This document shows, piece by piece, positions 2,271-21,775 of a stretch of 64,000 nucleotides of DNA (the stretch's first letter is position 1; the number at the start of each line of letters is the position of its first letter). The stretch is from a bacterium (GTDB lineage Bacteria > SAR324 > NAC60-12): the NCBI GenBank assembly GCA_965205865.1, contig CBDBHR010000028.1, positions 320,001-384,000 on the forward strand, written 5' to 3'. Both the position numbers and the translations under genes were made by a program. The notes under the pieces were generated by a model. The model did not search any database and had not been told where the DNA came from. It was given only the letters and a program-made list of their open reading frames with translations.

Positions 2271-3040
2271 GGGTCAGGCCGTGCGCCAGGAAAGCTGGCA
2301 AGAAATAGAGAGTGAAAGTCTCTTACTCGGTAAGGCAGTAACGACCCGCCGAGTCCCCGAGTCATGAGTGGTTATTCGCAAGGATAGGCGCTAAGCGTTG
2401 ACAGGGGAGAACATAGGCTCGGTATTGAGCTCCGAAATCATAGTTTCAGGTGCTGACCTTGTAGTCTGGTGGGGAAGGCAACATCAACCGAAGGCGTTAG
2501 CGTGAGTCCCGGTCGAGCCTGGCGGAGTCAAAGACCCGGTGCATGTGTGGAAGTTTCTTGATCGGAACCTGGGAGATCCTGAAGACGACTGTCAACATTC
2601 TATTGGTAGTCGGATCGGGAAAATTAATAAATAACCCCGATATCTACGTCTTCAGGAAGTCGGACAAGTTCGTAGTAGCGATGAAGCGGCGAACAATGAG
2701 ATCATTTGTAGAGAGTAATAATGCAAAGGAAATCAACGGAGCCTGTGGAGCAAAGGGACTTGGCTGAGAGGAATTCTGCTTGCCCTCCTGTGTTCGGAAC
2801 TCAGAGGCCGGTAAAATCAGAGAGCGGTTTAAGCAGGGTGCGCCAAACGGCAACGTCTGAGCGTCTGACTCGAAGCAGGAGCCGGATGCGTTAGCAGCGC
2901 ATGTCCGGATCTGTACCGGAGGAATGACGAAAGGTGGCTGGAAACCACTATAAGTCAGTTCTTTACGGTGACTTTGATTAAATGAAAAGGGAGCAAAAAA
3001 ACTAGACTCGTTCCTAATCAAACAATCAAAGGCCTGACCC
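2271..3040. repeat. ~78-bp palindromic element (17-bp IR GGGTCAGGCCTTTGATT / AATCAAAGGCCTGACCC) split by intron A
   Basis: Removing 2281-2972 restores a perfect 17-bp inverted repeat. The same element flanks copies 2-4. Confidence 0.85.
2281..2972 (+). ncRNA. ORF-less group II intron family A, copy 1
   Basis: GTGCG 5' end; D3-like AAGTCGGAC..GTAGTA..GAAG; D5 GAGCCGGATGCG..CGCATGTCCGG; ends GGTGAC. The 3' boundary is confirmed by the different flank of copy 5. Confidence 0.9.
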
Positions 3041-3337
3041 TGTTTCAAATCCCATCCATTGCCCTCTGCGCGTATTGGATTGCCGATCTTTCCTCACGTC
3101 CTCGGCCATACAAAGAATACGGTTTGCACTTCCCTTGAGGACGTCTTCATAATCTCGTAACATGTATGAAGACGGAATAGGACCAGAATATGAAACCTCC
3201 TTGATAACCCGAACAATATCACTACGAAATTCCTCAGGCAAAGAGTCGACGACTTTTTGTTGTGTCAAACTCAGTTTTTTTTCAGGAAAGTTATTACTCT
3301 GTGGTGTTTTCTCGTGTTTTTTTGAATTGCTCATCAT
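3026..3337 (-). pseudogene. DUF2335-like membrane protein, 3'-truncated
   Basis: YSGPIP..L..YE....GSANRI..MAE motif; runs into the palindrome after RRGQWMGF, before the expected transmembrane helices. Confidence 0.7.
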
Positions 3338-3736
3338 ATTTATGGATTGCTGTAAACATGTCTTTTCCTACTTGACCCCAAACATCAGATATATCTTCTT
3401 CCTTGGAAGCCGGGAAATAATTATTTATCTCAATAGCATTAAATCCCTCTACAGCCATTTAAGAATCCGGCCCAGAATGCATCCGGTGTATAACTAGATA
3501 ATTTTGCGCGATCCCATTTTATTTTTTCCATAACATCATCTCCAAGATTATTAATCTCCCTATTATATTATGAATAATTCAAGATCATGATTATACAATA
3601 TTTGTCAACAACGCAAAAGTTATGCCATCACATATTAGTGTAATGAATGCGAGAATAAATGTATTAATATTTAAATCCATTTTCATTAAAAAGCTTGAGG
3701 ATATTTACACTCCACACCCTCAAGCCTATTCATTAA

Positions 3737-4153
3737 TCAATCACACCAGGATTCTCGTTTACCACCATCATATTTTCTAGTATAGTCATTTTCCAATAAA
3801 ATATCGGAGAGGTTCTCACCATCAAGAAAAACATCACAGACCAAGCGAAAATATTTACCACGTTCGCAGTCTTTCAAATCGATCTTTGTTGCTTGAGAAT
3901 GTAATTCTTCGACAAAGTCCCTGACTTGTTTCGCACGTGATTTTTCAATATCACACTTTCCTCGTATTTCAGGAGTATCAATTCCCCTGATGCGGACACT
4001 GATTTTATCTCCAAAAATTGCAAGAATATTTGCAATACTATATGTACAAGTATCTCCATCATAACATCGGTGCCATCGAACGTCGTAAAAATCCGCGGCA
4101 TCAACCATTAATGGAAATGGAAGTGCTAGTAAAAATAAAAGGAACATTCTCAT
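3737..4153 (-). CDS. Secreted thermonuclease (SNase family)
   Basis: Signal peptide; YDGDT, RIRGIDTPE and GKYFRL motifs. Confidence 0.9.
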   Translation of the reverse strand: MRMFLLFLLALPFPLMVDAADFYDVRWHRCYDGDTCTYSIANILAIFGDKISVRIRGIDTPEIRGKCDIEKSRAKQVRDFVEELHSQATKIDLKDCERGKYFRLVCDVFLDGENLSDILLENDYTRKYDGGKRESWCD

Positions 4154-4330
4154 AACACATCTTTGATTGGGGTTGCAATTTCGACGCGCTTCTTCCGAAG
4201 GGCGTCGGGTTATTGCAACATGACCTAATCATAGGCGAAATGTCCCGATTATTTGTCCGAACCAAAGTGGCCAAACTTCAGTTCGAAATTGGACTTTTCT
4301 ATTCATCAGGTAACCCGACAAACTGACTAA

Positions 4331-5256
4331 GAACTTATCCTTTAATAACTTGAAAATTGGTATTTCCTGCATTATTTTTGTCATCATGTTCAACCATAAA
4401 CGCATGGAGGCTATATGGCAAAAGTACAGTCGTGGGAAGTATCTGATTCATTTTGGGCCAGAGTGGAGCCACTGATACCAAAACCCAAACGTGACCCGAA
4501 CAAGACCTACAAGCGCAAACCCGGTGGTGGTAGAAAGCCAATGCCTGCGCGCCAAATTTTCGAGGGAATTGTATATGTTTTGCGCACCGGTTGTCAATGG
4601 AGAGCCCTTCCCAAGGAAAAATATGGGAGTCCTAGTGCCATCCATGCTCATTTCATGCGTTGGAATGAAGCGGGTTTCTTTTTGTCGCTTTGGCAAGCCG
4701 GACTTGCCGAATATGATGAGATGGAAGGGATCTCCTGGAAATGGCAAAGCATAGACGGCACGACTGTCAAAGCCCCACTGGCTCAGGAAACCGTTGGTCG
4801 AAACCCGACTGACAGGGGAAAAAAAAGGGAGCAAGCGTCATTTGCTGGTTGACGGCCGTGGTGTCCCGCTGTCCCTCGTCGTAACCGGGGCGAACCGGCA
4901 TGATGTGACACAGTTGGAATTGGTCTTGGAGGAAATCGTCATTGCGCGGCCTGAGGGCATTGAACAACACCTGTGCGCAGACAAAGGCTACCACGGTGAG
5001 CCAGCATCACAGATCATTCGATCCAATGATTATGTGCCACATGTGAAAAAACGGGGTGAAGAGATTCAAGAAAAAAAAGCAAATCCCCAATACAGACCCA
5101 GAAGATGGGTCGTCGAGGTGAGCCATTCATGGTTCAACAGATTTCGCAAGATAATGGTCCGATTCGAAAAATATAATCAAACTTATCTCGCACTGCTTCA
5201 ATTGGCTGCAGCTATCATAACTTACAGGAAAGTTAATGTTATTTAAGGATAAGTTC
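4331..5256 (+). mobile_element. IS5-family insertion sequence
   Basis: IRs GAACTTATCCTTTAATAAC / GTTATTTAAGGATAAGTTC, flanked by TAA on both sides. Confidence 0.9.
4415..5246 (+). CDS. IS5-family transposase in two frames (probable frameshift at GGGGAAAAAAAAGGG ~4815-4829)
   Basis: YVLRTGCQW, IDGTTVKAP, KRHLLVD, ADKGY and RWVVE motifs spread over ORFs 4415-4852 and 4794-5246. Confidence 0.88.
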
Positions 5257-5393
5257 TAAGTCATATTGCAATTTTAAACCTATGTTACGGACAGAGAGTG
5301 TCAAGGGATTATCTTCAGCAGGATACTAGAAGATATTCTGTAGGGATTCAGGTCTCTCCTACTGCGACCCATGCATTCCATTGAGCATTGTAA

Positions 5394-5627
5394 AGAGACT
5401 TGGGAATCACAAAAAAATCAGCTTGGCATCTTGCCCATCGACTCCGGAAGACGTGGCAGGAAGATCAAGCGTTGTTCAAAGGGCCAGTTGAAGTGGATGA
5501 ATCCTAAATTTGCGGCAAAGAAAAGAATAAGCATGCTTCCAAGAAATTGAAGAAAGGACGCGGCCCTGTTGGTAAAAGTGCCGTCGCGGGCATCAAAGAC
5601 CGGAGTACCAACAAAGTGACAGCCTAA
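5394..5627 (+). pseudogene. IS1595-family transposase fragment
   Basis: Manual translation RDLGITKKSAWHLAHRLR..GPVEVDES*ICGKEKNKHASKK..GRGPVGK, with an internal stop. Confidence 0.8.
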
Positions 5628-5680
5628 AAAACAGAAAGTTTATTGTTTGAAATTATTTATTTTTTGAAGGAGGATTTGAA

Positions 5681-6082
5681 ATGGATTTAAGGAAAATATG
5701 TCAAAAATTGTATCTCATAATTTTTTTTTCGCTCATATTTATTTATCCGGTTTATTCTAATGAGGGGTTTATCGATTATAAAAATGAAATAACTGAATTT
5801 TCTGTTGTTGTCACTGAAGAATCAGAATTTATTGAATTTCATGTTGAAAATGACAGTTATTTTATCAAACTGCCAATCTCTGAATTGAGAAAGACAGAAC
5901 TCACATTGAGTGAAAATGGAATATCTGATGAGAACTTATCGAAAGTTGTGGAATATATCCTGATACAAACCTTCGACTCGGTTCGTGAGGAGTCATGGGT
6001 GGGAGTCAATGATACCGAACGCTTTCAGTTTCATGTTGGTTATTTCATAGAATATGAAATACAAGGTAGGAAAGGAAATTAG
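5681..6082 (+). CDS. Hypothetical exported protein
   Basis: AAGGAGG RBS and a hydrophobic N-terminus. The frame stays open past the TAG up to the palindrome at ~6207. Confidence 0.55.
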   Translation: MDLRKICQKLYLIIFFSLIFIYPVYSNEGFIDYKNEITEFSVVVTEESEFIEFHVENDSYFIKLPISELRKTELTLSENGISDENLSKVVEYILIQTFDSVREESWVGVNDTERFQFHVGYFIEYEIQGRKGN

Positions 6083-6611
6083 AGGATTCAATTCATTGAA
6101 GCTTACACGAATGCGATTCTGATTGAGGATCATTCAATTGATAATTACGGAAATTTTGTTACGACTCCAGAAAAAAAGAGTCGTTATGATGCAAAATTAA
6201 AGAAAGGGAGTCAGGCCGTGCGCCAGGAAAGCTGGCAAGAAATAGAGAGTGAAAGTCTCTTACTCGGTAAGGCAGTAACGACCCGCCGAGTCCCCGAGTC
6301 ATGAGTGGTTATTCGCAAGGATAGGCGCTAAGCGTTGACAGGGGAGAACATAGGCTCGGTATTGAGCTCCGAAATCATAGTTTCAGGCGCTGACCTTGTG
6401 GTCTGGTGGGGAAGGCAATATCAACCGAAGGCGTTAGCGTGAGTCCCGGCTGAGCCTGGCGGAGTCAAAGACCCGGTGCATGTGTGGAAGTTTCTTGATC
6501 GGAACCTGGGAGATCCTGAAGACGACTGTCAACATTCTATTGGTAGTCGGATCGGGAAAATTAATAAATAACCCCGATATCTACGTCTTCAGGAAGTCGG
6601 ACGAGTTCGTA

Positions 6612-7516
6612 GTGCGCACTGGGCAGCGCATGATTCAGGTGGGTTCAAGTTCCACTCAGCCTGAGATCCCAGGCTGATATCCAAAAGCGGGGGTAATGCC
6701 TCGCTGGCCGGAATGTTTACCAGGGCGCCATCCTGGGCGCTTTAAGCACAATGGGAGGTCGAAAGGGCCAAATGCACCGAAGTGAACTTCCGGAGGACAG
6801 GGTGTCCACCGTGAGGTGGAATCTGAAGGGTTTGCGGAGAATCACCGGGTCGTAGTCAAGGAGGCTACTCCAGAGACGAACCGGTCGGCCAACAGCAGGG
6901 AATGGTTGAGCTTGCACTATGATGGCGAAAGCAGTTGGATTCCCCCCTGCAATACCAAGGTGTGTGCGGACGACACGGTGAGGAAGAATCATGAGTGACC
7001 CCAGGAGGACTCAGGGCGTTCTTAGGTGGCACTAGGATAAGGGACCCTATAAGCGAAAGCGAAGTGGAAACCGAAGCGTGTTGAGTAGTCGGACCATCGA
7101 ATAGTACCTGAAGCGTAGTGAGAGCTACGTGACCGAGGGATCGGCAGCAGAGTGAGCTGGGGAAGGCGATGGGCAGAGAAGGTTGGAATGAGAAAGGAAG
7201 TCAGATGAGTAAGGACAGTGAGGTGGAAAGTTCGGTAAGTGAAAGACCCAGAACTCATGGCCCGAGGAGACTGGCTGACTGGATCAATCTAACGGGAGCA
7301 AAGAAGGTTCACTCCTTAGTGGACAAGATTTACAAGAAGCTCTCCCCGAAACAAGATTATATGGGGAGTATCGGTTAGTAAATCTGATCTCACTAATTCC
7401 TTCGATTGGTCCCTTCGGCAAACGGACTTCTCTGTGAAAGCCGGATGCGGGAAAACTGCACGTCCGGTTTGGGCGGCGGACGGTGGCTAGCGGAAACGCG
7501 CCTCCTCCGACCCGAC
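6612..7516 (+). ncRNA. Group II intron family B nested in D3 of intron A, IEP internally deleted
   Basis: GTGCG start; D5 AAAGCCGGATGCGGGAAAACTGCACGTCCGGTTT; ends CCCGAC, after which the host intron resumes at AGCGATGAAG. Confidence 0.88.
7205..7437 (+). pseudogene. Intron-encoded RT/maturase remnant (N- and C-termini only)
   Basis: MSKD..KKVHSLVDKIYKK (RT0-like) is joined out of frame to LPETRLYGEYRLVNLISLIPS..*, immediately before D5. Confidence 0.75.
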
Positions 7517-7934
7517 AGCGATGAAGCGGCGAACAATGAGATCATTTGTAGAGAGTAACAACGCAAAGGAAATCAACGGAGCCTGTGGAGCAAAGGGACT
7601 TGGCTGAGAGGAATTCTGCTTGCCTTCCTGTGTTCGGAACTCAGAGGCCGGTAAAATCAGAGAGCGGTTTAAGCAGGGTGCGCCAAACGGCGAATCCGAA
7701 TCAACGTTTGAGCGTCTGACTCGAAGCAGGAGCCGGATGCGTTAGCAGCGCACGTCCGGATCTGTACCGGAGGAATGACGAAAGGTGGCTGGAAACCACT
7801 ATAAGTCAGTTCTTTACGGTGACTTTGATTAAATGAAAAGGGAGCAAAAAAACTAGACTCGTTCTTAATCAAATAATCAAAGGCCTGACCCCCTTCCTCA
7901 TAATTCCTCCTTGGAAATAATTTTACCCAAAGGG

Positions 7935-7963
7935 TTGACAAAGGAGGAAACTTATGAGATAAT
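7935..7963 (+). promoter_or_regulatory. Sigma70-like promoter
   Basis: TTGACA-17 nt-GATAAT. Confidence 0.6.
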
Positions 7964-8014
7964 AGAAATTAGTTAATTATTTACCCGCTCGTCTTTCCCT
8001 TGAGCGTTAAAAGT

Positions 8015-8055
8015 AAACGCTATGAAATCTCCAAATTTCATAGCGTTTTTTATTT
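8015..8055 (+). terminator. Intrinsic terminator
   Basis: AAACGCTATGAAAT / ATTTCATAGCGTTT stem followed by a T-tract. Confidence 0.75.
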
Positions 8056-8189
8056 GTCCGGTCACTCTACAATAAAATACTGAACAATACGAGTCATTTC
8101 TTTATCCTGTTATTCAGCATCTTGTCCTTGTTCAATCGAAGTTGATGCAATCTTAGAGATAGTCAGGCAATGATTACGACCTCTAGCTA

Positions 8190-10059
8190 GACCCTAGCCG
8201 AAAAGGGTTTCGAGAAATAGTAAATGTAACCAATTTGATTCTATTTGATTCTCTATTTGATTCAATATGACGAGAATAACGATTTATTTTGTTTTTTATT
8301 CGCCCACATGAAACAGTTTTTATAGGGAAAAAATCTTTTTTTGGACATACTTTCCTCGCCCCTGCTCATATTTCACACTTCCCCCATTGAATATTCAGGC
8401 CGCTTGTTTGAGTTGTCTTTTTTTCAACTCAATCATTTTGCAAAAATTATAGGTTAAGAGCTTTTTCCAGCAACTCTGCCCGAACGTTTTCAATCCCTCT
8501 GCGCATAACTTGTCCGAAATGGAAACGATGCTTAAGATGAAACATCAACGACTCTGCAGCAGATCTTCCATTTCGTGATTCCAAATAGATTTCACTTTCC
8601 CATTCTTCAATCGGGGTCATCTTTTTTCCCAAACGCCCCACTAATACTAAAAACCTTAACGCCTTTGCCCATCCACTTTTCTCTGATCGCCTGATTGGCA
8701 TATCCATCATCAAGGCTCACTTCAGAGGGAATGGTGATGGTGCATCGCAAATGTTCAACAAGGGCAGGGTCGAGTTGCCCTGAATCAGCAGCATGGCCCT
8801 CCGGAGTAATTAACACGGAAATAAAACCATTTCCGCTCCTTCCTAATTGAGGCTTATATCCGATAAGCGCTTCTCGATCTCTTTTGAATATAAGCCGAGC
8901 TCTGATCGGAAAGACTCAATACTTTCTCAGTCGAAGGAACCTTCTTTTCTTCAAAAACTCTTTGATGACAGTAGATGATTCCGTTGCAAATTAGAAATAT
9001 CTTCATTCATCATTTCAATGAGGCGAATAACGCGTTTTCCGAGAAGGGGGGAGAAGAGCTTTTTGAGGCACGGTAATAAGGACAGTTTGCGATTTCTTTT
9101 AAAAATTTCCCAAAGCGCTATTGAGCTTTCTCAATAGCGGTCATTTGAAATGTTTTTAAAAGCTTCGTTTTACTGTCCTTTTTACCGTGTCTCAAAAGCC
9201 ATCATCCCCCCTTAGAAAAGCTTATTCATCTCCTTGATGAGGAAATCAAAATTTCTTTCACTGATCTCAGCGATTCCAAATGTATCAAGGGAACGCCCTC
9301 GATGGTAGCTTCGCTCCGATCGAGACGAGTCATATTCGAGGGAATCGAGTAGGCCAAGCTGATATTTCCTTTTACAGAGGTGCTATCCAGTTTTTAATAT
9401 CAAAATCGTCCAACTCTTCATCGAGAACCATTCTGAATTCAGAGCAATCGAAAATAAACTGTTGAACTCTCGTTGATGACAGCATTGACCATTATCTGAA
9501 GGAGCCTTGTACTCGATCCCGGCATTGCCAATCCACGGTTGAGCAAAAGCAGATGCAAAGTGTGATTGACTCTGAAAGAATTATTTGGGCCGTTTGGGAT
9601 TTGATACTTCCTAAATGATCCCCGAATCATGATAAAAAGGTAAACTAAAAAAGCCGAATCCGAGGACAGATCTATTTCCAGTCCTGAGTTCTTCGGCTTC
9701 AATTCCTCATCTTCCATTACGGGAAGATGAGGAAGCCATGGATTCCGGGCTTCCTGCCAGTTTATCCTCTAAACGCTCTTTCTTTTTATTTCTTGCGTAT
9801 TTCTCCAAATCCTGTTCAATTTTGTCCAATATCTCCGGCTCTCGCTCAGACAATTGATCAAGTTCTGATAAGAAATTTTCAAATTCTGTATCAGGAGCGC
9901 TTAAAATAAGATGTTTTTCTGCTCGAATGAATGGTTTCATTTTGGGTGCCATAATTCTTAATATTGAAGTTATTCACAGTCATTTCAATGAATTATGGCA
10001 CTTTCAATAACCTCAAGTTTAAAGATATAATTCTAAAAAATACCTTTTCGGCTAGGATC
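8190..10059 (-). mobile_element. DDE IS (ISNCY/IS5-like), degenerate copy
   Basis: IRs GACCCTAGCCGAAAAGG / CCTTTTCGGCTAGGATC with a TAGCTA duplication; the transposase is broken by many indels. Confidence 0.88.
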
Positions 10060-10267
10060 TAGCTAAGTAATCCCGTAGAACTTTATCACAATATCACGCA
10101 ATTTTCTGTGAATTGTTCCCAAGTATTAAGAAAAATGTAGGATCCCAGTCATTTCTTTACGATCTGGCACATATATTGCCTTGTTGACAACTCCTGTATA
10201 ATATTCTGCATTTGTAAACCCTCAAAAGGATAAAATATAAGGATCACAAAAAACTATAAGGGGTGAC

Positions 10268-10429: not shown

Positions 10430-10434
10430 AACAA

Positions 10435-11777: not shown

Positions 11778-12049
11778 ATGTCTCGGAAAACGCGTTTGTA
11801 CGACCCTGGTACGCTTTGTCATGTGCTTCGAGGCAATGGGGACCAACGTATTTTTTTCGATGACAGCGACTCTCGTAGCCTTTATCAGTCTTCGATTGGA
11901 AATCTGCAACAATTCGGGAAGTGGCAAATGCTCTCAATCGAGATGATGCTACTTTCAGTCGTGGAGTGCATAAGTTGTGAGAAAGATTGAAGGAATCCAC
12001 AAATCTCCAAAAGCGGTTAAAAAAACTTAACCTAAAAATGTTTTCTTAA
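11778..12049 (+). pseudogene. RAYT-like (Y1 HUH) transposase, internally deleted
   Basis: N-terminus MSRKTRLYDPGTLCHVLRGNGDQRIFFDDSD is fused to an HTH-like tail (TIREVANALNRDDATFSRGVHKL). Followed by TTGCAAGCCTGACCCC at 12060-12075. Confidence 0.75.
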
Positions 12050-12076
12050 ATTCGCAAACTTGCAAGCCTGACCCCC

Positions 12077-12268: not shown

Positions 12269-12330
12269 AGTTACTGAGTCTTATCTAACGATTTTTGAAG
12301 ATAGTCAATTTAACCTATTAATATTTAGTG

Positions 12331-12891
12331 ATGGAAGCCATGCTCATTGATCATCAACGTGAAAAATTGATTAATCTAATCATATACTTTGCTACCCATA
12401 CTAAACGATTTCATAAAGTAAAGTTATTCAAACTTCTATATTTTTTAGATTTTGAACATTATTCTTTAACAGGCCGAAATGTCACTGGATTAGATTACTA
12501 TGCTTGGGATAATGGGCCATGTCCAAAAGATCTACATGAAGAAATTGATGATCCTCGATCAGATATGAAAGAGAGTATCACATTTAGTTCAATTTCATAC
12601 AAGAATGGAGATAGGTTAGATATCAAGCCACTTAAAAAATTTGACCCAAAACATTTCTCAAAGAGAGAGCTTCGCATTTTAGAAGGACTTGCAGAAGAAT
12701 ATAAAAATACCTTAGCAAAAGATATGATTGAAGAGACTCACTTAGAGAATCTTCCTTGGCATCAAATTTATAATGTGCAGAAAAATAAATATGCGCATAT
12801 CCCATATGAACTTACACTCAAAAGGCAAGAACAAGAGGAGATGAAACAATATATCGAGGGAACCCGTGATTTTTGGCAGGGATATGAATGA
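12331..12891 (+). CDS. Panacea/SocA-like (DUF4065) antitoxin
   Basis: KLFKLLYFLDF..TG..Y.AWDNGP and TH...PW motifs. Confidence 0.82.
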   Translation: MEAMLIDHQREKLINLIIYFATHTKRFHKVKLFKLLYFLDFEHYSLTGRNVTGLDYYAWDNGPCPKDLHEEIDDPRSDMKESITFSSISYKNGDRLDIKPLKKFDPKHFSKRELRILEGLAEEYKNTLAKDMIEETHLENLPWHQIYNVQKNKYAHIPYELTLKRQEQEEMKQYIEGTRDFWQGYE

Positions 12892-13304
12892 CACCGGGTT
12901 CAATTCTACTCGATAGAAAATATGCTTTCCAGTCAGGAGATTCTGGCCAGAAATTTGTTATTGTACTGAATGATGGAAGTGATTATCCTTACATTATAGT
13001 AAGAACTACCTCTCAACAAAAAAATAGAGGAACAATCTTTGGATGTCAGTCAAACGATAGATTCCCCAATTTTTTCCTTCCTCAAGGCAGTTGTTATTTT
13101 TCTAAACATACTTGGATACAATTAGAGGATTTTCGTGAGTTTCACATTGGTGACTTGCTTGATAAATTAAAGGCAGGTGAAATATTCAGAGCAGCAGAGC
13201 TTCCAAAAGACCTCACTATTAAGCTCTTAAGATGTGCTATATCATGTGATGATATTAGCCATGCACAAGCAGGAATTCTTCAAAAAATTCTAGCTATACT
13301 GTGA
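12888..13304 (+). CDS. Putative toxin, PemK/MazF-like fold
   Basis: ATGA overlap with the antitoxin; G.I....Y.F.....K..IVL...IIV.TTS pattern. Confidence 0.55.
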   Translation: MTPGSILLDRKYAFQSGDSGQKFVIVLNDGSDYPYIIVRTTSQQKNRGTIFGCQSNDRFPNFFLPQGSCYFSKHTWIQLEDFREFHIGDLLDKLKAGEIFRAAELPKDLTIKLLRCAISCDDISHAQAGILQKILAIL

Positions 13305-13443
13305 ACGGATGTTTTCTTCATTTTTTGTCATCCTGTGGGAACCGAATGATCTTCTTGATTCCCATGAGTTTCTTGCTTAGGTAGCCCCCTTAGCTCAGAA
13401 TGACAGGTTTTTTGAAAAGTGAAATTTAAACCCGTTCAGAGTA
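13297..13443. mobile_element. ~147-bp MITE, copy 1
   Basis: TIRs TACTGTGAACGG / CCGTTCAGAGTA with TA flanks; an inverted near-identical copy lies at 44725. Confidence 0.8.
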
Positions 13444-13526
13444 TAATCTTGAACAGTAATTTGAAATGTAATCAGAACAAAACGCTTCATCTGACTTACA
13501 CCAAGAATATAGAAAGGGGTCAGGCT

Positions 13527-14228
13527 GTGCGCCAGGAAAGCTGGCAAGAAATAGAGAGTGAAAGTCTCTTACTCGGTAAGGCAGTAACGACCCGCCGAGT
13601 CCCCGAGTCATGAGTGGTTATTCGCAAGGATAGGCGCTAAGCGTTGACAGGGGAGAACATAGGCTCGGTATTGAGCTCCGAAATCATAGTTTCAAGTGCT
13701 GACCTTGTAGTCTGGTGGGGAAGGCAACATCAACCGAAGGCGTTAGCGTGAGTCCCGGTCGAGCCTGGCGGAGTCAAAGACCCGGCGCATGTGTGGAAGT
13801 TTCTTGATCGGAACCTGGGAGATCCTGAAGACGACTGTCAACATTCTATTGGTAGTCGGATCGGGAAAATTAATAAATAACCCCGATATCTACGTCTTCA
13901 GGAAGTCGGACAAGTTCGTAGTAGCGATGAAGCGGCGAACAATGAGATCATTTGTAGAGAGTAACAATGCAAAGGAAATCAACGGAGCCTGTGGAGCAAA
14001 GGGACTTGGCTGAGAGGAATTCTGCTTGCCCTCCTGTGTTCGGAACTCAGAGGCCGGTAAAATCAGAGAGCGGTTCAAGCAGGGTGCGCCAAACGGCAAT
14101 CCGAATCAACGTTTGAGCGTCTGACTCGAAGCAGGAGCCGGATGCGTTAGCAGCGCACGTCCGGATCTGTACCGGAGGAATGACGAAAGGTGGCTGGAAA
14201 CCACTATAAATCAGTTCTTTACGGTGAC
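13527..14228 (+). ncRNA. ORF-less group II intron family A, copy 3
   Basis: Same as copy 1. Flanks are GGGGTCAGGCT| and |TTTGATT...AAAGGCCTGACCCC (to 14296), followed by a duplicated CTGACCCCTTTT. Confidence 0.9.
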
Positions 14229-14325
14229 TTTGATTAAATGAAAAGGGAGCAAAAAACTGGACTCGTTCCTAATCAAATAATTAAAGGCCTGACCCCTTTT
14301 CTGACCCCTTTTTAGGAGAGCAGTT

Positions 14326-15692: not shown

Positions 15693-15694
15693 TC

Positions 15695-16921
15695 ATGAGA
15701 ATCCGTCAGATTACGAGCATCACGATCTTGTTGCTGTTGGCTGCAACGGCTTCTAATCTCGTTTGGGCTCTCACCCCCACTTCATCAATGGAGTTGCCCC
15801 TGACGCAGGGGGAGCAGGCCGCAAGACTCTGGCGGATTGCCAGTGCGGAGGTCGCTCGCAAGCTCTATCCGACTTTCGGTAGAGACGATCGAACCAAAGT
15901 TTTATTACCAGCGCAACTATCGCCTCCTGTGGATTGAAGCAACCCTCAATCAACGGATACTGTTGGCAGAAAAGATTGGTGTTACAAGGTGCCGCCAGGT
16001 TCGCTGCGGAACGAGGTTGGATTAAGATACTCGGTTTTCGGTATCGTGGCATCCAACAAGGGCCAGACTCCGTGTATTGGGATCAACGATCAGGTCGTCT
16101 CCGCGTACTGGAAGCGAAAGGAGGAACTGCCAAACCAATAAAGGCTTTCAATAGCTTGCAGGGTACGAATAAAAACGCGATCAGGTCTGCTAGATTTGTT
16201 CTTCGGTCATTAAAAGCAACCCTTATGGAAAAACATGCGGCTGCACTTGTAATTGTGGCTGCTCAGCAGGGTCGACTCGTTACAGGTGTAATAAATACTC
16301 TTCACAAGTTGGGAACTCCGGACACCCCCAAGCTGGCAGGCAATTGGGATTACGATTATGTAGGAAGGGAAGCAAGCACGATCGAGCAGAAATTAATCCG
16401 TAATAAACCCGAGGTTCGATCAGTCTTTCGGCATGCGCATAAGGAGCAATCATTTGCCATGCTGAAATACTGGGAAACCCGAAGACCGGCGAACATTGGA
16501 TTTGCTAGGAATGCGTACCAGCAGTCACTGATTGCCTGGTCCAAGTTCAACAATCCTCCCCTGAAAGGAAACGTTTTACCCTACATAAGGACTGGCTCGT
16601 CGATTCACAGAATAACACAGTCAACTACTCAACCAGGTATTTTGAGACTTTCCAAGGAGGGAGTTAGTAAGTTTGCCGGCAGATTGATTCTACCGGTCAT
16701 CCTTGGTGTGGAGGGATTACAATTTGCCATAGCATATCACCAATACGGCTTGGGTCGTATCAGTCAGCGTGATTTCTACCGTCGCACTACCGGACCCGCG
16801 ATCGTCGCGGTTTTCACAGTCGGCGGAGCTATAGTTGGTGGGATTATTGGAATGCAAGGCGGAGGGATCACGGCAATCCCAGTTGCCTACACTGGTGCCA
16901 AAATAGGCGCGATCCTAGCTA
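15695..16921 (+). pseudogene. Exported protein with a REase-fold-like motif, frameshifted and IS-interrupted (5' part)
   Basis: Signal peptide; AEKIG..GAARF and GPDSVY..VLEAKGG motifs over three frames; continues after the IS pair. Confidence 0.6.
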
Positions 16922-18754
16922 GACCCTAGCCGAAAAGGGTTTCGAAAATAGTAAATGTAACCAATTTGATTCTATTTGATTCTCTATTTGATTCAATATG
17001 ACGAGAAAACGATTTTTTTGTTTTTTATTCGCCCACAGCACAGTTTTTATAGGGAAAAAATCTTTTTTGGACATACTTTCCTCGCCCCTGCTCATATTTC
17101 ACACTCCCCCATTGAATATTCAGGCCGCTTGTTTGAGTTGTCTTTTTTTCAACTCAATCATTTTGCAAAAATTATAGGTTAATGCTTTTTCCAGCAACTC
17201 TGCCCGAACGTTTTCAATCCCTCTGCGCATAACTTGTCCGAAATGGAAACGATGCTTAAGATGAAACATCAACGACTCTGCAGCAGATCTTCCATTTCGT
17301 GATTCCAAATAGATTTCACTTTCCCATTCTTCAATCGGGGTCATCTTTTTTCCCTTTGCCCCACTAATACTAAAAACCTTAACGCCTTTGCCCATCCACT
17401 TTTCTCTGATCGCCTGATTGGCATATCCATCATCAAGGCTCACTTCAGAGGGAATGGTGATGGTGCATCGCAAATGTTCAACAAGGGCAGGGTCGAGTTG
17501 CCCTGAATCAGCAGCATTGCCCTCCGGAGTAATTAACACGGAAATAAAACCATTTCCGCTCCTTCCTAATTGAGGCTTATATCCGATAAGCGCTTCTCGA
17601 TCTCCCTTTTGAATATAAGCCGAGCTCTGATCGGAAAGACTCAATACTTTCTCAGTAGAAGGAACCTTCTTTTCTTCAAAAACTCTTTGATGACAGTAGA
17701 TGATTACCCGTTGCAAATTAGAAATATCTTCATTCATCATTTCAATGAGGCGAATCAAACGCGTTTTCCGAGAAGGGGGGAGAAGAGCTTTTTGGGCACG
17801 GATATCCACCTTTGCCATTTCTTTTAAAAATTTCCCATGAGCGCTTTGAGCTTTCTTCAATAGGGTTTTGTAATGTTTTTTTCGCTTCGTTTTACTGTCC
17901 TTTTTACCTGTCTCAAAAGCCATCATCTTAGAGAGCTTATTCATCTCCTTGATGAGGAAATCAAAATTTCTTTCACTGATCTCAGCGATTCCAAATGTAT
18001 CAAGGGAACGCCCTCGATGGTAGCTTCGCTCCACGAGACGAGTCAATATCGACGAATCAGTAGGCCAAGCTGTATTTCCTTTTACAGAGGTGCTATCCAG
18101 TTTTAAAATATCAAAATCGTCCAACTCTTCATCGAGAACCATTCGAATTTGAGCATCGAAAATAAACTGTCTGCTCTCGTTGCTGACAGCATTGACATTA
18201 TCAAGGATTGTACTCGCTCCCGGCATTTTCAATCCACGGTTGAGCAGAAGCAGATGCAGTGTGATTGACTCTGAAAGAAATATTTGGGCCGTTTGGGATT
18301 TGATACTTCCTAAATATCCCCGAATCATCATAAAAAGGTAGACTAAAAAAGCCGACATCCGAGGACACCCTATTTCCAGCCTCAGTTCTTCCGGCTTCAA
18401 TTCCTCATCTTCTACGGGAAGATGAGGAAGCCATGGATTCCGGGCTTCCTGCCATCGTTTATCCTCTAAACGCTCTTTCTTTTTATTTCTTGCGTATTTC
18501 TCCAAATCCTGTTCAATTTTGTCCAATATCTCCGGCTCTCGCTCAGACAATTGATCAAGTTCTGATAAGAAATTTTCAAATTCTGTATCAGGAGCGCTTA
18601 AAATAAGATGTTTTTCTGCTCGAATGAATGGTTTCATTTTGGGTGCCATAATTCTTAATATTGAAGTTATTCACAGTTATTTCAATGAATTATGGCACTT
18701 TTTAACCTCAAGTTTAAAGATATAATTCTAAAAAATACCTTTTCGGCTAGGATC
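16922..18754 (-). mobile_element. DDE IS (ISNCY/IS5-like), intact copy, 1833 bp
   Basis: IRs as at 8190, with TAGCTA on both sides. Confidence 0.92.
17120..18649 (-). CDS. DDE transposase (509 aa)
   Basis: LDSTSV...WPTDS, DDGY and R...E....LK motifs. Confidence 0.9.
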   Translation of the reverse strand: MAPKMKPFIRAEKHLILSAPDTEFENFLSELDQLSEREPEILDKIEQDLEKYARNKKKERLEDKRWQEARNPWLPHLPVEDEELKPEELRLEIGCPRMSAFLVYLFMMIRGYLGSIKSQTAQIFLSESITLHLLLLNRGLKMPGASTILDNVNAVSNESRQFIFDAQIRMVLDEELDDFDILKLDSTSVKGNTAWPTDSSILTRLVERSYHRGRSLDTFGIAEISERNFDFLIKEMNKLSKMMAFETGKKDSKTKRKKHYKTLLKKAQSAHGKFLKEMAKVDIRAQKALLPPSRKTRLIRLIEMMNEDISNLQRVIIYCHQRVFEEKKVPSTEKVLSLSDQSSAYIQKGDREALIGYKPQLGRSGNGFISVLITPEGNAADSGQLDPALVEHLRCTITIPSEVSLDDGYANQAIREKWMGKGVKVFSISGAKGKKMTPIEEWESEIYLESRNGRSAAESLMFHLKHRFHFGQVMRRGIENVRAELLEKALTYNFCKMIELKKRQLKQAA

Positions 18755-18760
18755 TAGCTA

Positions 18761-20593
18761 GACCCTAGCCGAAAAGGGTTTCGAAAATAGTAAATGTAAC
18801 CAATTTGATTCTATTTGATTCTCTATTTGATTCAATATGACGAGAAAACGATTTTTTTGTTTTTTATTCGCCCACAGCACAGTTTTTATAGGGAAAAAAT
18901 CTTTTTTGGACATACTTTCCTCGCTCCTGCTCATATTTCACACTCCCCCATTGAATATTCAGGCCGCTTGTTTGAGTTGTCTTTTTTTCAACTCAATCAT
19001 TTTGCAAAAATTATAGGTTAATGCTTTTTCCAGCAACTCTGCCCGAACGTTTTCAATCCCTCTGCGCATAACTTGTCCGAAATGGAAACGATGCTTAAGA
19101 TGAAACATCAACGACTCTGCAGCAGATCTTCCATTTCGTGATTCCAAATAGATTTCACTTTCCCATTCTTCAATCGGGGTCATCTTTTTTCCCTTTGCCC
19201 CACTAATACTAAAAACCTTAACGCCTTTGCCCATCCACTTTTCTCTGATCGCCTGATTGGCATATCCATCATCAAGGCTCACTTCAGAGGGAATGGTGAT
19301 GGTGCATCGCAAATGTTCAACAAGGGCAGGGTCGAGTTGCCCTGAATCAGCAGCATTGCCCTCCGGAGTAATTAACACGGAAATAAAACCATTTCCGCTC
19401 CTTCCTAATTGAGGCTTATATCCGATAAGCGCTTCTCGATCTCCCTTTTGAATATAAGCCGAGCTCTGATCGGAAAGACTCAATACTTTCTCAGTAGAAG
19501 GAACCTTCTTTTCTTCAAAAACTCTTTGATGACAGTAGATGATTACCCGTTGCAAATTAGAAATATCTTCATTCATCATTTCAATGAGGCGAATCAAACG
19601 CGTTTTCCGAGAAGGGGGGAGAAGAGCTTTTTGGGCACGGATATCCACCTTTGCCATTTCTTTTAAAAATTTCCCATGAGCGCTTTGAGCTTTCTTCAAT
19701 AGGGTTTTGTAATGTTTTTTTCGCTTCGTTTTACTGTCCTTTTTACCTGTCTCAAAAGCCATCATCTTAGAGAGCTTATTCATCTCCTTGATGAGGAAAT
19801 CAAAATTTCTTTCACTGATCTCAGCGATTCCAAATGTATCAAGGGAACGCCCTCGATGGTAGCTTCGCTCCACGAGACGAGTCAATATCGACGAATCAGT
19901 AGGCCAAGCTGTATTTCCTTTTACAGAGGTGCTATCCAGTTTTAAAATATCAAAATCGTCCAACTCTTCATCGAGAACCATTCGAATTTGAGCATCGAAA
20001 ATAAACTGTCTGCTCTCGTTGCTGACAGCATTGACATTATCAAGGATTGTACTCGCTCCCGGCATTTTCAATCCACGGTTGAGCAGAAGCAGATGCAGTG
20101 TGATTGACTCTGAAAGAAATATTTGGGCCGTTTGGGATTTGATACTTCCTAAATATCCCCGAATCATCATAAAAAGGTAGACTAAAAAAGCCGACATCCG
20201 AGGACACCCTATTTCCAGCCTCAGTTCTTCCGGCTTCAATTCCTCATCTTCCACGGGAAGATGAGGAAGCCATGGATTCCGGGCTTCCTGCCATCGTTTA
20301 TCCTCTAAACGCTCTTTCTTTTTATTTCTTGCGTATTTCTCCAAATCCTGTTCAATTTTGTCCAATATCTCCGGCTCTCGCTCAGACAATTGATCAAGTT
20401 CTGATAAGAAATTTTCAAATTCTGTATCAGGAGCGCTTAAAAAAAGATGTTTTTCTGCTCGAATGAATGGTTTCATTTTGGGTGCCATAATTCTTAATAT
20501 TGAAGTTATTCACAGTGATTTCAATGAATTATGGCACTTTTTAACCTCAAGTTTAAAGATATAATTCTAAAAAATACCTTTTCGGCTAGGATC
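18761..20593 (-). mobile_element. DDE IS, second tandem copy, 1833 bp
   Basis: Separated from the previous copy by one TAGCTA; right flank GAGCTA. Confidence 0.92.
18959..20488 (-). CDS. DDE transposase (509 aa)
   Basis: Nearly identical to 17120-18649. Confidence 0.9.
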   Translation of the reverse strand: MAPKMKPFIRAEKHLFLSAPDTEFENFLSELDQLSEREPEILDKIEQDLEKYARNKKKERLEDKRWQEARNPWLPHLPVEDEELKPEELRLEIGCPRMSAFLVYLFMMIRGYLGSIKSQTAQIFLSESITLHLLLLNRGLKMPGASTILDNVNAVSNESRQFIFDAQIRMVLDEELDDFDILKLDSTSVKGNTAWPTDSSILTRLVERSYHRGRSLDTFGIAEISERNFDFLIKEMNKLSKMMAFETGKKDSKTKRKKHYKTLLKKAQSAHGKFLKEMAKVDIRAQKALLPPSRKTRLIRLIEMMNEDISNLQRVIIYCHQRVFEEKKVPSTEKVLSLSDQSSAYIQKGDREALIGYKPQLGRSGNGFISVLITPEGNAADSGQLDPALVEHLRCTITIPSEVSLDDGYANQAIREKWMGKGVKVFSISGAKGKKMTPIEEWESEIYLESRNGRSAAESLMFHLKHRFHFGQVMRRGIENVRAELLEKALTYNFCKMIELKKRQLKQAA

Positions 20594-20599
20594 GAGCTA

Positions 20600-20721
20600 T
20601 TCCTGTTCATTTTGCAGCCGATTATATGTTGGATTGGCATTACCGGGAATTCGATGAACATCAACGTCTGGTCGTTAATGCGGCAGTTGAAAAACACTAT
20701 GGCTTGAACCCCGGATCATAG
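20600..20721 (+). pseudogene. 3' remainder of the IS-interrupted gene 15695-16921
   Basis: Removing the IS pair and one TAGCTA gives in-frame GAILA-IPVHFAADYMLDW...NPGS*. Confidence 0.7.
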
Positions 20722-20770
20722 TTCAACACTGACTCGTGATCATACCTTTACCCTGAAACGGGGACAGGCC

Positions 20771-21462
20771 GTGCGCCAGGAAAGCTGGCAAGAAATAGAG
20801 AGTGAAAGTCTCTTACTCGGTAAGGCAGTAACGACCCGCCGAGTCCCCGAGTCATGAGTGGTTATTCGCAAGGATAGGCGCTAAGCGTTGACAGGGGAGA
20901 ACATAGGCTCGGTATTGAGCTCCGAAATCATAGTTTCAGGCGCTGACCTTGTGGTCTGGTGGGGAAGGCAATATCAACCGAAGGCGTTAGCGTGAGTCTC
21001 GGCTGAGCCTGGCGCAGTCAAAGACCCGGTGCATGTGTGGAAGTTTCTTGATCGGAACCTGGGAGATCCTGAAGACGACTGTCAACATTCTATTGGTAGT
21101 CGGATCGGGAAAATTAATAAATAACCCCGATATCTACGTCTTCAGGAAGTCGGACAAGTTCGTAGTAGCGATGAAGCGGCGAACAATGAGATCATTTGCA
21201 GAGAGTAACAATGCAAAGGAAATCAACGGAGCCTGTGGAGCAAAAGGACTTGGCTGAGAGGAATTCTGCTTGCCCTCCTGTGTTCGGAACTCAGAGGCCG
21301 GTAAAATCAGAGAGCGGTTTAAGCAGGGTGCGCCAAACGGCAACGTTTGAGCGTCTGACTCGAAGCAGGAGCCGGATGCGTTAGCAGCGCACGTCCGGAT
21401 CTGTACCGGAGGAATGACGAAAGGTGGCTGGAAACCACTATAAGTCAGTTTTTTACGGTGAC
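20771..21462 (+). ncRNA. ORF-less group II intron family A, copy 4
   Basis: Same as copy 1. Flanks are GGGGACAGGCC| and |TTTGATT...AATCAATGGCCTGACCCC. Confidence 0.9.
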
Positions 21463-21775
21463 TTTGATTAAATGAAAAGGGAGCAAAAAAATTGGACTCG
21501 TTCCTAATCAAATAATCAATGGCCTGACCCCCTTCCAAGTTCGTGAAAGTTTGGGTCAAATATTTTCTCATCTTTTCGATCAGAAGGAAAAGATGAAGAT
21601 AAGTTTTAGGAATTTGAATCGAGAAGATTTTCATTTTTTACCACGTTGACATCCATTGCCTCCCCTTTGAATGCCGGTCGTCTTTTCAGGCGGCCGGGTT
21701 TAGGTTATTCTTTTTTTGGTGATATAGTAAACTCTCCTGTTCTTTAAGAGTCAAGTCGTAATTTGTTTGTAAGGA

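Follow-up and report, generated by a model that had tools for sequence, protein, structure and literature searches.

Group II introns without an endonuclease domain at the termini of RAYT-like palindromic elements in a SAR324 bacterium: probable repeated homing of ORF-less copies

Introduction

Group II introns have been described at repeated sites within other mobile DNA. Three ORF-less introns (family F4) occupy a conserved site in ISEL1, an element of the IS200 family (Mohr, Ghanem and Lambowitz 2010, PMC2882425), and a group II intron of P. putida KT2440 lies in REPs at two of its nine copies (Tobes and Pareja 2006, PMC1525189). Group IIC introns recognise the structure of a hairpin and insert downstream of it, and their EBS-IBS pairings are short (Gomes et al. 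2025, PMC12584367). The association of REPs with Y1 transposases is mentioned in a meeting report (PMC2936281). A first-pass annotation of the DNA studied here saw a group II intron repeated inside RAYT-type palindromes and held that no such arrangement had been described; in view of the ISEL1 and REP precedents, that statement was too strong. REP/REPIN-RAYT and IS200/IS605 elements are reportedly treated in work by Nunvar in 2010 and by Bertels and Rainey in 2011, and the latter authors are said to take a single-copy, vertically inherited (domesticated) transposase as the criterion for a RAYT.

Results

Five copies of one intron family in the window

The window, by which we mean the whole stretch of 64,000 nucleotides that was analysed, contains five copies of one intron family, termed family A (Table 1). 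RF02005 (group-II-D1D4-6) matches all five at 158.4-164.6 bits (Rfam gathering threshold, 49), and the domain I-IV ribozyme structure of a group II intron is thus present in each of them. All five begin with GTGCG and end in TTTACGGTGAC. These matches confirm that four introns lie between ...CAGGC(C/T) and one common tail of 67-68 nt, TTTGATTAAATG...AATCAAAGGCCTGACCC. The length of 690-705 nt initially given for them holds for copies 1, 3 and 4 and not for copy 2, which is 1606 nt long, and the count of four is right for copies with the tail, a fifth copy without it being present as well; its 3' exon reads TCACCTGCTCC... instead. The covariance models gave a clear answer for D1-D4. For D5/D6, the RF00029 matches stop exactly at the last nucleotide of copy 1 (30.1 bits, E 0.005) and copy 2 (31.0 bits, E 0.003), under the Rfam cut-off of 40, and D6 is unusually long in the alignment.

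Table 1. Features of the window and full-length family-A copies elsewhere in the genome.
Feature	Position	Strand	Evidence or remark
Third, ORF-less group II intron family, first 266 nt	2014..2279	+	
Copy 1 5' exon, homing-site motif GGGTCAGGCC	2271..2280	+	end of other-family intron fragment, not palindrome arm
Family-A copy 1, ORF-less, 692 nt	2281..2972	+	RF02005 (2315-2537), boundaries
Copy 1 EBS1, AGTCTG	2463-2468	+	
Copy 1 EBS2, ACCCC	2634-2638	+	
Copy 1 RT remnant	from ATG 2721	+	
Copy 1 D5/D6	2877-2972	+	RF00029 below cut-off
Copy 1 tail (3' exon), 68 nt	2973..3040	+	remainder of 78-nt element
Copy 2 5' exon motif GAGTCAGGCC	6208..6217	+	left arm of 78-nt element
Family-A copy 2, twintron, 1606 nt	6218..7823	+	RF02005 (6252-6474)
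ORF-less intron of another family, 905 nt, nested in domain IV of copy 2	6612..7516	+	RF00029, 44.2 bits (7436-7516)
Copy 2 tail, 68 nt	7824..7891	+	
RAYT-like unit remnant, N-terminal codons MSRKTRLYDPGTLCHVLRGNG... and right terminal repeat ...GCAAACTTGCAAGCCTGACCCCC	11778..12076	+	left terminus absent
Copy 3 5' exon motif GGGTCAGGCT	13517..13526	+	
Family-A copy 3, ORF-less, 702 nt	13527..14228	+	RF02005 (13561-13783)
Copy 3 tail, 67 nt	14229..14295	+	
Copy 4 5' exon motif GGGACAGGCC	20761..20770	+	
Family-A copy 4, ORF-less, 692 nt	20771..21462	+	RF02005 (20805-21027)
Copy 4 tail, 68 nt	21463..21530	+	
Fifth family-A copy, 690 nt, after CCGGGACAGGCT	38767..39456	+	RF02005 (38801-39023)
Full-length copy, 1957 nt, open 470-aa ORF	C29:631162-633118		
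Full-length copy, 1957 nt, open 470-aa ORF	C26:286295-288251		
Full-length copy, 1957 nt, open 470-aa ORF	C29:734414-732458		
Full-length copy, 1957 nt, open 470-aa ORF	C30:425540-423584		

The left flank of copy 1, originally read as a palindrome arm, is instead a fragment of the third intron family. This family natively reads GGGTCAGGC joined to GCATAACG; the window fragment stops at an internal GGGTCAGGC, and other copies run on into GCATAACGTGG... and finish with a D5-like hairpin. The fragment has four near-full matches at 94-96% and one match of 91 nt. Because of this flank, copy 1 lies outside any intact 78-nt element, and with no such element around it, it is ectopic or recombinant.

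Genome-wide, 41 family-A 5' ends were found, 37 of them with GTGCG, and the copies finish in ...GGTGAC. A full-length intron with its reverse transcriptase, which the first pass had proposed to look for, is present four times. The encoded 470-aa protein scores 339.8 bits on the group II RT/maturase model TIGR04416 (cut-off 300) and 126 bits on RVT_1; no nuclease domain was reported by the domain search, and the protein is not among the matches of the Pfam GIIM search. The ORF is deleted from the window copies. The ORF-less copies, the majority of the family, have one deletion of 1265 nt of the RT gene in common, and the 16 paired copies measure 689-703 nt, with the ORF reduced to its first and last codons. 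The claim that only terminal codons of the protein are left is borne out by the full-length siblings, whose ORF contains ...GLSRVRQRAKRNPHLQ... close to its N-terminus and finishes with ...YPNQRLSV and a stop codon. In a sister species (G001), three copies of the intron follow GGGGGTCTGGCT and precede a RAYT start codon, and the intron is also found there in a palindrome finishing in GCCTGACCCC. No spliced joint across 2281-2972 was found in contigs from four public runs (two of them RNA), a kind of record that cannot show absence.

The palindromic element and the RAYT-like units

Removal of the intron yields, as had been noticed at the outset, a palindrome of 78 nt, and intron-free 78-nt elements of the same form are present elsewhere in the genome. 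One of these, taken as ssDNA, is predicted to form an almost perfect hairpin with a folding energy of -21.4 kcal/mol (z = -8.2, equalled by 0 of 200 shuffles). The outer flanks differ at each copy, and the bases bordering the element are inverted (AAAGG...CCTTT) and not direct, so that there is no target duplication. A MITE of a DDE transposon was rejected on this account: terminal inverted repeats are present, and a direct target-site duplication is not. The 78-nt element was counted 30 times: 16 copies are empty, seven carry the intron in the forward arm and six in the reverse arm, and one is rearranged; none has both arms filled. The internal variants of the tail (GGGAGC/GGGGGC, CTAGAC/CTGGAC) are common to filled and empty elements. 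The sequence GGGGTCAGGC occurs 145 times in the genome, versus 7 expected from base composition.

The short palindromes have 22 nt of each terminus in common with a Y1 unit at C26:138255. The genome holds 15 Y1_Tnp matches, ten of which have GGGGTCAGGCY... as their left end and ...RGCCTGACCCC as their right end, inverted copies of a dispersed repeat with 164 exact ends genome-wide. In five of these ten units, an intron lies directly after the left motif, about 100 nt ahead of the start codon. The RAYT-like units span about 1.1-1.2 kb and have inverted repeats of about 25 bp at their termini, and the remnant at 11778-12076 ends in the same right terminus, as first reported; intact RAYT-like genes with matching termini also exist, which had been a point to check. 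The 312-aa protein scores 52.6 bits on Y1_Tnp (PF01797, cut-off 23) and exhibits an HVH motif (H60-V-H62) and an RYIHLNP motif (R-Y119-IHLNP), which by analogy we take to be the HUH motif and the catalytic tyrosine, respectively. On the curated RAYT model NF047646 (REP_Tyr_transpos), it reaches 72.4 bits, under the cut-off of 80, and a C-terminal DnaA-C-like helix-turn-helix scores 29 bits, below the Pfam cut-off. The gene is not single-copy, with five near-identical copies at C29:722-746 kb and other subfamilies in addition. By copy number, DnaA-C-like helix-turn-helix and sub-cut-off RAYT score, it is more IS-like than a domesticated RAYT.

The probable homing site

The target word GGGGTCAGGCY^T (^, insertion point) is complementary to EBS2 (ACCCC) and EBS1 (GGUCUG) of the intron, and it is the common outermost terminus of the RAYT-like Y1 units and of their 50-78-nt miniatures. 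Exact GGGTCAGGC followed by C or T precedes 28 of the 41 intron 5' ends, most others being off by one or two bases. Of the 164 exact sites, 136 are unoccupied, and 126 of these have T as the next base. EBS2 is found at intron positions 354-358 in 28 of 29 copies, and EBS1 reads GGTCTG in 22 and AGTCTG in 7 of the 29. Twelve of 15 distant homologue introns exhibit, at the equivalent place (positions 179-185), a stretch of at least 6 nt complementary to their own last exon bases; these bases comprise at least nine different sequences, and such complementary changes support the EBS1 position. No such stretch was found in the remaining three (L027, L042 and L041). The C/T at -1 is explained by the G at position 183, for which both C and U are pairing partners. 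Within this genome, the first base of EBS1 and the last exon base display no clean covariation (G-T 13, G-C 9, A-T 5, A-C 2). On the 3' side, about 10 of 36 exons are not recognisably of palindrome or RAYT type. Local GC skew on the sense strand is positive for 31 of the 40 copies, a bias to be expected if an intron without endonuclease uses the lagging-strand template. The skew is weak (absolute value 0.02) and patchy, and because the copies are clustered they do not count as independent observations.

Origin of the four units

Based on these observations, it is very probable that the four units are independent insertions of family A, guided by EBS2 and EBS1 to RAYT-like termini, with the ORF-less copies moved in trans. 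The intact RT/maturase copies, the common deletion, the EBS complementarity and the Y1-unit termini all point to a trans-mobilised intron specialised on RAYT/REP-type palindromes, one of the two possibilities raised initially. Family A combines an RF02005-type ribozyme with an RT/maturase without endonuclease domain. EBS2 (5'-ACCCC) and EBS1 (5'-GGUCUG or AGUCUG, intron positions 183-188) would pair with 5'-GGGGU/CAGGCY-3', the intron RNA finding the DNA by base pairing and reverse-splicing directly after Y. The short palindromes are probably internally deleted derivatives of RAYT-like Y1 units, and since the 11-nt word is the terminus of units and derivatives, every element would offer two homing sites, one at either end and on opposite strands. 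From the sequence we infer that the four full-length copies supply the protein that splices and moves the ORF-less copies in trans, and that, for a protein without endonuclease, cDNA synthesis is presumably primed at replication forks.

The other possibility was that palindrome and intron form one non-autonomous HUH element, moved as a unit by the RAYT-like transposase. Five of the seven forward-arm composites do lie on one contig, four within 20 kb of the window and on one strand; the absence of target duplication is as expected for HUH transposition, and intact RAYT-like genes with matching termini are available. However, the terminal repeat is split exactly at the GTGCG.../...GAC intron boundary, either arm may be used, 16 empty elements persist, and the same ORF-less intron is found in at least eight other types of 3' exon and in RAYT ends. 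The window copies are different haplotypes and variants (692 nt, 702 nt and the twintron), and an intron that separates the outer 11 nt from the inner repeat by 0.7-1.6 kb would be expected to hamper recognition of that end. The analysis of five forward-arm composites gave five label changes on the intron tree, the same as for shuffled labels, and constraining the five to be monophyletic lowers the lnL by 30.8 (AU p = 0.007 for a group chosen after the haplotype table was seen), although gene conversion among copies could blur this tree. The use of both arms, the existence of empty elements and intron haplotypes that are not sorted by target thus support repeated retrohoming in trans and not composite transposition, which we regard as very unlikely.

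Spread mainly by segmental duplication, homologous recombination or gene conversion between repeats appears similarly improbable. Some rearrangement is needed for copy 1, where part of another intron is combined with a palindrome tail; a 40-nt left flank is common to C28:358767 and C29:409363, and a tandem intron pair is found at C26:239009/239712. Against DNA-level processes as the main route, the outer flanks differ at nearly all 41 5' ends, the junction is always at one phosphodiester bond of the 11-nt word complementary to EBS2 and EBS1, and intact RT/maturase genes are present. It is hardly credible that the intron extends through the tail at its 3' end or that the four copies are an assembly artefact, even though the D5/D6 score is under threshold and no public contig bridges copy 1. 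The tail is found without the intron 16 times, 24 of 36 intron 3' ends lack the forward tail and six have it inverted, and the 5' boundary is fixed by EBS1/IBS1 covariation. Substitutions, a 10-nt indel and the 905-nt nested intron distinguish the copies, and their flanks are unique; for copy 1, the flanks to either side are present in public contigs, in records that cover 2108-2255 and 2993-3854.

Discussion

The closest parallel is with TeI3/TeI4 of Thermosynechococcus elongatus, as described in the relevant parts of PMC2882425: in both systems, ORF-less introns derive from an ORF-containing one by one deletion in domain IV that leaves remnants of both ORF ends, twintrons occur, and mobilisation is in trans by sibling proteins, the latter being inferred here. 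In contrast to what is described there, the site of family A is the outermost terminal repeat of several Y1-unit subfamilies and of miniature palindromes, and the sites are far more numerous (164 exact, 28 filled). Moreover, TeI4h has an endonuclease domain and the family-A protein does not, the ribozyme here is of RF02005 type, and family A is known from sequence alone.

Like the group IIC introns at terminator and attC hairpins, as portrayed in the sections of PMC12584367 considered here, family A is specialised on repeated, hairpin-forming intergenic DNA; unlike them, it has its insertion point within the 5' arm, 10-11 nt in from the end of the element, and a probable 11-bp pairing by EBS2 and EBS1. 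By this position and pairing, family A does not fit group IIC; its matches are to RF02005. Group IIC introns have a very short IBS1 and are not known to have an EBS2.

REP-type palindromes are also insertion targets of ISPpu9, ISPpu10, ISPa11, ISPsy8 and IS1397 (PMC1525189). According to the relevant part of that study, such elements are mostly DNA transposons, and the intron at REPs is there in a minority of its copies, whereas most family-A copies are at the motif and a pairing that would explain this is identified. The host elements resemble REP/REPIN-RAYT and IS200/IS605 systems in that a Y1 HUH gene lies between inverted repeats that are also dispersed as short palindromic doublets, with no target duplication. 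They differ from REP/REPIN-RAYT in that the gene is multi-copy, with five near-identical units within 25 kb of C29.

The same word precedes the intron in relatives with 53-61% protein identity: AAAGGGACAGGCA in a Psychrobium genome (three copies), CAGGGACAGGCA in a Spongiibacteraceae MAG (one copy) and GGAAGGGGGACAGGCG in a Planctomycetaceae MAG (four copies, two with an inverted partner 47 or 459 nt downstream). The introns of other relatives are found in unrelated exons. The DNA directly downstream contains a weak Y1-like ORF in three cases: in L046 it scores 31.5 bits, which is above the cut-off, in L050 it scores 19.7 bits, and in L043 it reaches 37 bits on NF047646. The motif was not found at the ends of the PF01797-detected RAYT-like genes fetched from the Planctomycetaceae MAG (0 of 6) or Psychrobium (0 of 5). 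Against a reversed control in five genomes, the word is enriched in only two (26 vs 5 and 227 vs 130), with no enrichment in G001, G043 and G044. It is conceivable, though rather doubtful, that the RF02005-type endonuclease-less lineage as a whole is a long-standing hyperparasite of one HUH/Y1 palindromic element family, with EBS2/EBS1 matched to GGG(G)[A/T]CAGGC across phyla, which would gain sites as its host element spreads and would probably disable the end that it enters. For the SAR324 genome itself, family A provides a clear new example of a homing strategy already known for group II introns.

Group II introns within a palindromic element

One group II intron, hereafter family A, occurs five times in the window, each copy matching the Rfam model RF02005 with 158-165 bits (cut-off, 49 bits). 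Copies 1 to 4 are preceded by (G)GGTCAGGC(C/T), or by a one-base variant of it, and followed by a common 67-68-nt tail. Once the intron is removed, these flanks form a 78-nt palindrome, which is present without an intron at other genome loci; for one intron-free palindrome, the single-stranded DNA fold has an energy of -21.4 kcal/mol (z = -8.2). The RF02005 matches, the common tail and the intron-free palindromes bear out the first-pass annotation, which described four introns splitting one palindrome. Its description of four repeated introns of about 700 nt holds for copies 1, 3 and 4, whereas copy 2 is a twintron and a fifth copy exists.

Features of the window and related sites (C numbers denote contigs of the same genome; positions without a contig are those of the window, which corresponds to C28:320001-384000)
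Feature	Position	Description
Family-A copy 1	2281-2972	RF02005
Family-A copy 2	6218-7823	RF02005; twintron, 1606 nt
Family-A copy 3	13527-14228	RF02005
Family-A copy 4	20771-21462	RF02005
Family-A fifth copy	38767-39456	RF02005; without palindrome tail
Nested intron	6612-7516	905 nt, ORF-less, other family, in domain IV of copy 2
Third ORF-less intron family	2014-2279	First 266 nt; left flank of copy 1
RF02001-type introns	46818-47168; 50761-50927	Further family, 111 bits
RAYT-like remnant	11778-12076	Truncated unit, TGCAAG subfamily
Partial terminal-word duplications	14290-14320; C16:11480; C26:288330; C28:31070; C29:81850; C30:789910	
IS, tandem copies	17120-18649; 18959-20488 (minus)	Two identical 1839-nt copies, 509-aa DDE_Tnp_1 transposase
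IS, third copy	about 8200-10065	Older, diverged
G/C-rich short repeat	about 1790-1880	Just 3' of the stop of a solute-binding-protein gene (1-1842)
SocA/Panacea-domain antitoxin-like ORF and 138-aa ORF	12328-13304	Overlapping; 138-aa ORF of no known family
Type ISP restriction-modification enzyme	22195-25341	1048 aa

The placement inside the palindrome, proposed for all four copies, does not extend to copy 1, whose left flank belongs to a third ORF-less intron family. Nearly complete matches to this family, which is about 1.1 kb long, lie at C23:188270, C23:121750, C29:588516 and C30:745954. GGGTCAGGC is native to domain I of the family; the other copies run on from GGGTCAGGC into GCATAACG and end with a D5-like hairpin, and the fragment in the window matched no Rfam family at gathering score. 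As the flank is a fragment of such an intron, copy 1 is an ectopic or recombinant junction rather than an intron inserted into an intact palindrome. In contigs from public runs, the flank upstream of copy 1 continues differently, pointing to part of another repeated intron. No joint across 2281-2972 was found in the contigs of four public runs (two labelled RNA) over window positions 1500-3900; these contigs break at repeats, so the result is neutral on splicing or empty sites.

The intron nested in copy 2 has three copies genome-wide, the other two being at C30:654280-655120 and C29:729062-728189. At least three other family-A copies (C29:628615, C30:1205902 and C28:262897) contain a second kind of nested intron, of about 906 nt (GTGAGCAGCC...ACCCGGC), which is unrelated to the first and inserted a few bases away from its site. 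Family A therefore forms twintrons of two kinds.

Together with the introns, the IS copies make the region a dense patch of mobile elements. The G/C-rich repeat has dozens of 48-90-nt BLAST matches genome-wide, and its summed contig depth is very high in all four public runs. The SocA/Panacea-domain ORF and the overlapping 138-aa ORF possibly constitute a toxin-antitoxin pair.

Genome-wide census and intact RT/maturase

The assembly comprises 4.74 Mb in 30 contigs and is 92% complete. With 30-nt probes and at most four mismatches, a census by which truncated copies are missed, 41 5' ends and 36 3' ends of family A were found. By paired ends, 16 copies measure 689-703 nt, four measure 1957 nt and one, whose ORF is broken, 2039 nt; in addition, there are three twintrons (1599-1606 nt), and several forms are truncated. 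Nine of the 5' ends and five of the 3' ends are unpaired, and one 3897-nt pairing is a mispair. At C26:239009-240180, two family-A introns are arranged head-to-tail, the 3' end of the first abutting the GTGCG of the second.

A full-length family-A intron with RT, for which the first-pass annotation had proposed a search, is represented by the four 1957-nt copies, which contain an open 470-aa ORF. The encoded protein is a group II RT/maturase (TIGR04416, 339.8 bits with a cut-off of 300; RVT_1, 126 bits), in which domain searches reported no nuclease domain. In the short copies, 1265 nt of the RT ORF are missing, which leaves only its first and last codons, and the few residues previously read as a reduced IEP (GLSRVRQTA-NPNQRLSV and stop) are the ORF ends left by this loss. 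The ORF was identified by comparing long and short copies; the Pfam GIIM search missed the family-A protein and matched only the 460-aa RT/maturases encoded by RF02001-type introns elsewhere in the genome.

As the 470-aa protein has no endonuclease domain, mobility should depend on replication-fork primers. In agreement, the local GC skew of the sense strand is positive at 31 of 40 copies; the skew is weak and the copies are clustered, so that this gives no more than a hint of replication-fork priming.

Target word and RAYT-like elements

The genome contains 145 occurrences of the sequence GGGGTCAGGC, where 7 would be expected. On the two strands together, exact GGGTCAGGC(C/T) is found at 164 sites; the intron follows 28 of these and is absent after the other 136, which gives an occupancy of about 17%. 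The next base is T at 126 of the 136 empty sites, whose subfamilies are distinguished by the following bases: TTTGATTA (37), TGCAAGTT (30), TGCATACT (10), TGAAAGTT (7), TGCATATT (6) and others.

Among the 15 Y1_Tnp (PF01797) matches in the genome, ten exhibit GGGGTCAGGCY and a subfamily-specific repeat at the left edge and the inverse, ending in RGCCTGACCCC, at the right edge. In five of these ten units, the left motif is directly followed by the intron, which lies about 100 nt 5' of the start codon. The 312-aa Y1 protein (Y1_Tnp, 52.6 bits) exhibits an HVH motif, RYIHLNP and a weak DnaA-C-like helix-turn-helix, and scores 72.4 bits on the NCBIfam RAYT model, under the cut-off of 80. Five near-identical units of one subfamily, with flanks that all differ, occur within 25 kb at C29:722000-746000; two hold the intron, ORF-less in one and full length in the other, and three have empty left ends. 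As the RAYT score is below the cut-off and the subfamily is multi-copy, we refer to these units as RAYT-like, with an IS-like behaviour.

The 78-nt element has 22 nt in common with the RAYT-like unit at C26:138255 at each terminus, and represents a miniature form of it. These common termini and the truncated TGCAAG unit at 11778-12076 support the link between palindrome and RAYT that had been proposed. Directly outside several element ends, partial repeats of the terminal word are observed (e.g. ...CCTGACCCCTTTTCTGACCCCTTT, or GGGGTCAGAAGGGGGTCAGGCC), which may have been left by insertion or excision of the Y1 element itself.

Predicted pairing of the intron with its target

With regard to EBS1, 15 distant homologue introns, all RF02005-positive, were each scanned for complementarity to the 5' exon of the same intron. 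Twelve of the 15, among which at least nine exon sequences are represented, have a complement of at least 6 nt to the last 6-8 exon bases at intron positions 179-185; no EBS1 complement was found in the other three (L027, L041 and L042). As the complements occupy one place across differing exons, EBS1 is located by covariation. At this position, 22 of 29 family-A copies read GGTCTG and seven read AGTCTG, both complementary to CAGGCY. The G of EBS1 can pair with either C or U, which accounts for the C/T variation noted after CAGGC. Within the genome, the EBS1 variant covaries only weakly with the final base of the exon (G/T 13, G/C 9, A/T 5, A/C 2), and comparison with the same-genus sister species G001 is uninformative, the target being different there (TCTGGCT) and the intron loop the same.

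At intron positions 354-358, 28 of 29 family-A copies exhibit ACCCC, complementary to GGGGT, and a complement of the distal exon occurs at the same place in two homologues. EBS2 and EBS1 are thus predicted to span exactly the 11-nt word common to all subfamilies, the variable part starting at +1. Through this pairing, the intron would home to transposon ends.

Homing and composite transposition

As the word common to the transposon ends is matched by both EBS2 and EBS1, each palindrome would be a double target, and as it occurs once per strand in the palindrome, homing predicts that both arms are used. A blastn-short census of the 78-nt element (n = 30), which provides the proposed count of intron-bearing and empty palindromes, yielded 16 empty copies, 13 filled in one arm (seven forward, six reverse) and one rearranged; both arms were filled in none of the 30. 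The ORF-less intron is also found in RAYT left and right ends and with at least eight other 3'-exon types, and tail variants are common to filled and empty elements. The intron tree was built from 26 copies, with C30:225276, C23:92291 and C28:58772 omitted as divergent or deleted. On this tree, the five forward-arm composites require five label changes, and shuffled labels need no more; constraining the composites to one group, chosen after the haplotype table was known, costs 30.8 lnL (AU p = 0.007).

The first-pass annotation had offered two readings. An HUH element carrying a ribozyme as one unit is not supported, given the filling of either arm, the ungrouped composites and the mixed tail variants; for the family as a whole, we reject the composite unit on the basis of both-arm use, exon diversity and the tree. 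Moreover, the window copies differ in haplotype, copies 1 and 3 belonging to one and copies 2 and 4 to another. The use of both arms, the many 3'-exon types and the match of EBS2 and EBS1 to the word favour instead a trans-mobilised intron specialised on RAYT/REP palindromes. That four copies lie on the same strand within 20 kb of each other leaves a very low probability for occasional transposition of intron and palindrome together.

Relatives in other genomes

Family-A intron DNA is present in three of the 41 related genomes searched: the genome under study, G001 and one genome of the same family. In G001, three copies follow GGGGGTCTGGCT 5' of a RAYT start codon, and another is inside a palindrome ending in GCCTGACCCC. 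Homologues with 53-61% protein identity follow nearly the same word in a Psychrobium genome (three copies), a Spongiibacteraceae MAG (one) and a Planctomycetaceae MAG (four). An inverted partner lies downstream in two of the four Planctomycetaceae copies, and the right-end partner of the Psychrobium unit is found only with two mismatches. Weak Y1-like ORFs follow the intron at three homologue loci (L043, L046 and L050). Two results speak against a lineage-wide association: the word was found at the ends of none of the 11 Pfam-detected RAYT-like genes in two of these genomes (Psychrobium, 0/5; Planctomycetaceae MAG, 0/6), and it is enriched over a reversed control in only two of five genomes. 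Based on the exons of these homologues, the target word may be conserved across phyla.

Discussion

Bacterial group II introns persist by homing into other multi-copy mobile DNA. The feature described here is real and well explained, and its strategy is already known. The closest described system is the intron set of T. elongatus, in which introns made ORF-less by one deletion are trans-mobilised and form twintrons, one family occupies a conserved site of an IS200-family element, and homing into another mobile element is named as a proliferation mechanism (PMC2882425); the short family-A copies have likewise lost the ORF by one deletion, and twintrons occur. REP-targeting IS elements have been tabulated, together with a P. 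putida intron found in REPs at two of nine copies (PMC1525189), and IS605 elements containing group II introns have been mentioned (PMC4810608). The specialised intron lineages listed in the introduction of PMC12584367 do not include any on REP/RAYT termini. In the open-access literature on group II introns, we found no description of an intron specialised on such termini. The novelty resides in the target, namely the word conserved at the outer ends of RAYT-like Y1 elements and of their miniature palindromes, which the predicted EBS2 and EBS1 match.

Regarding annotation, a long insert in a "REP-like" palindrome may be an intron that splits it, and half-palindromes beside introns can be mistaken for intron parts. 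The logic of homing into mobile DNA is very plain here, as an 11-nt word of a whole transposon family and its miniatures appears to be matched by both exon-binding sites. Three layers of parasites are present in this genome: the Y1 elements, the intron homing into them, and the introns nested in that intron. With empty, singly filled and autonomous forms all present, it constitutes a good natural system in which to study how ORF-less introns are mobilised in trans, how introns without an endonuclease depend on the replication fork, and whether an HUH element can be disabled when an intron splits its end.
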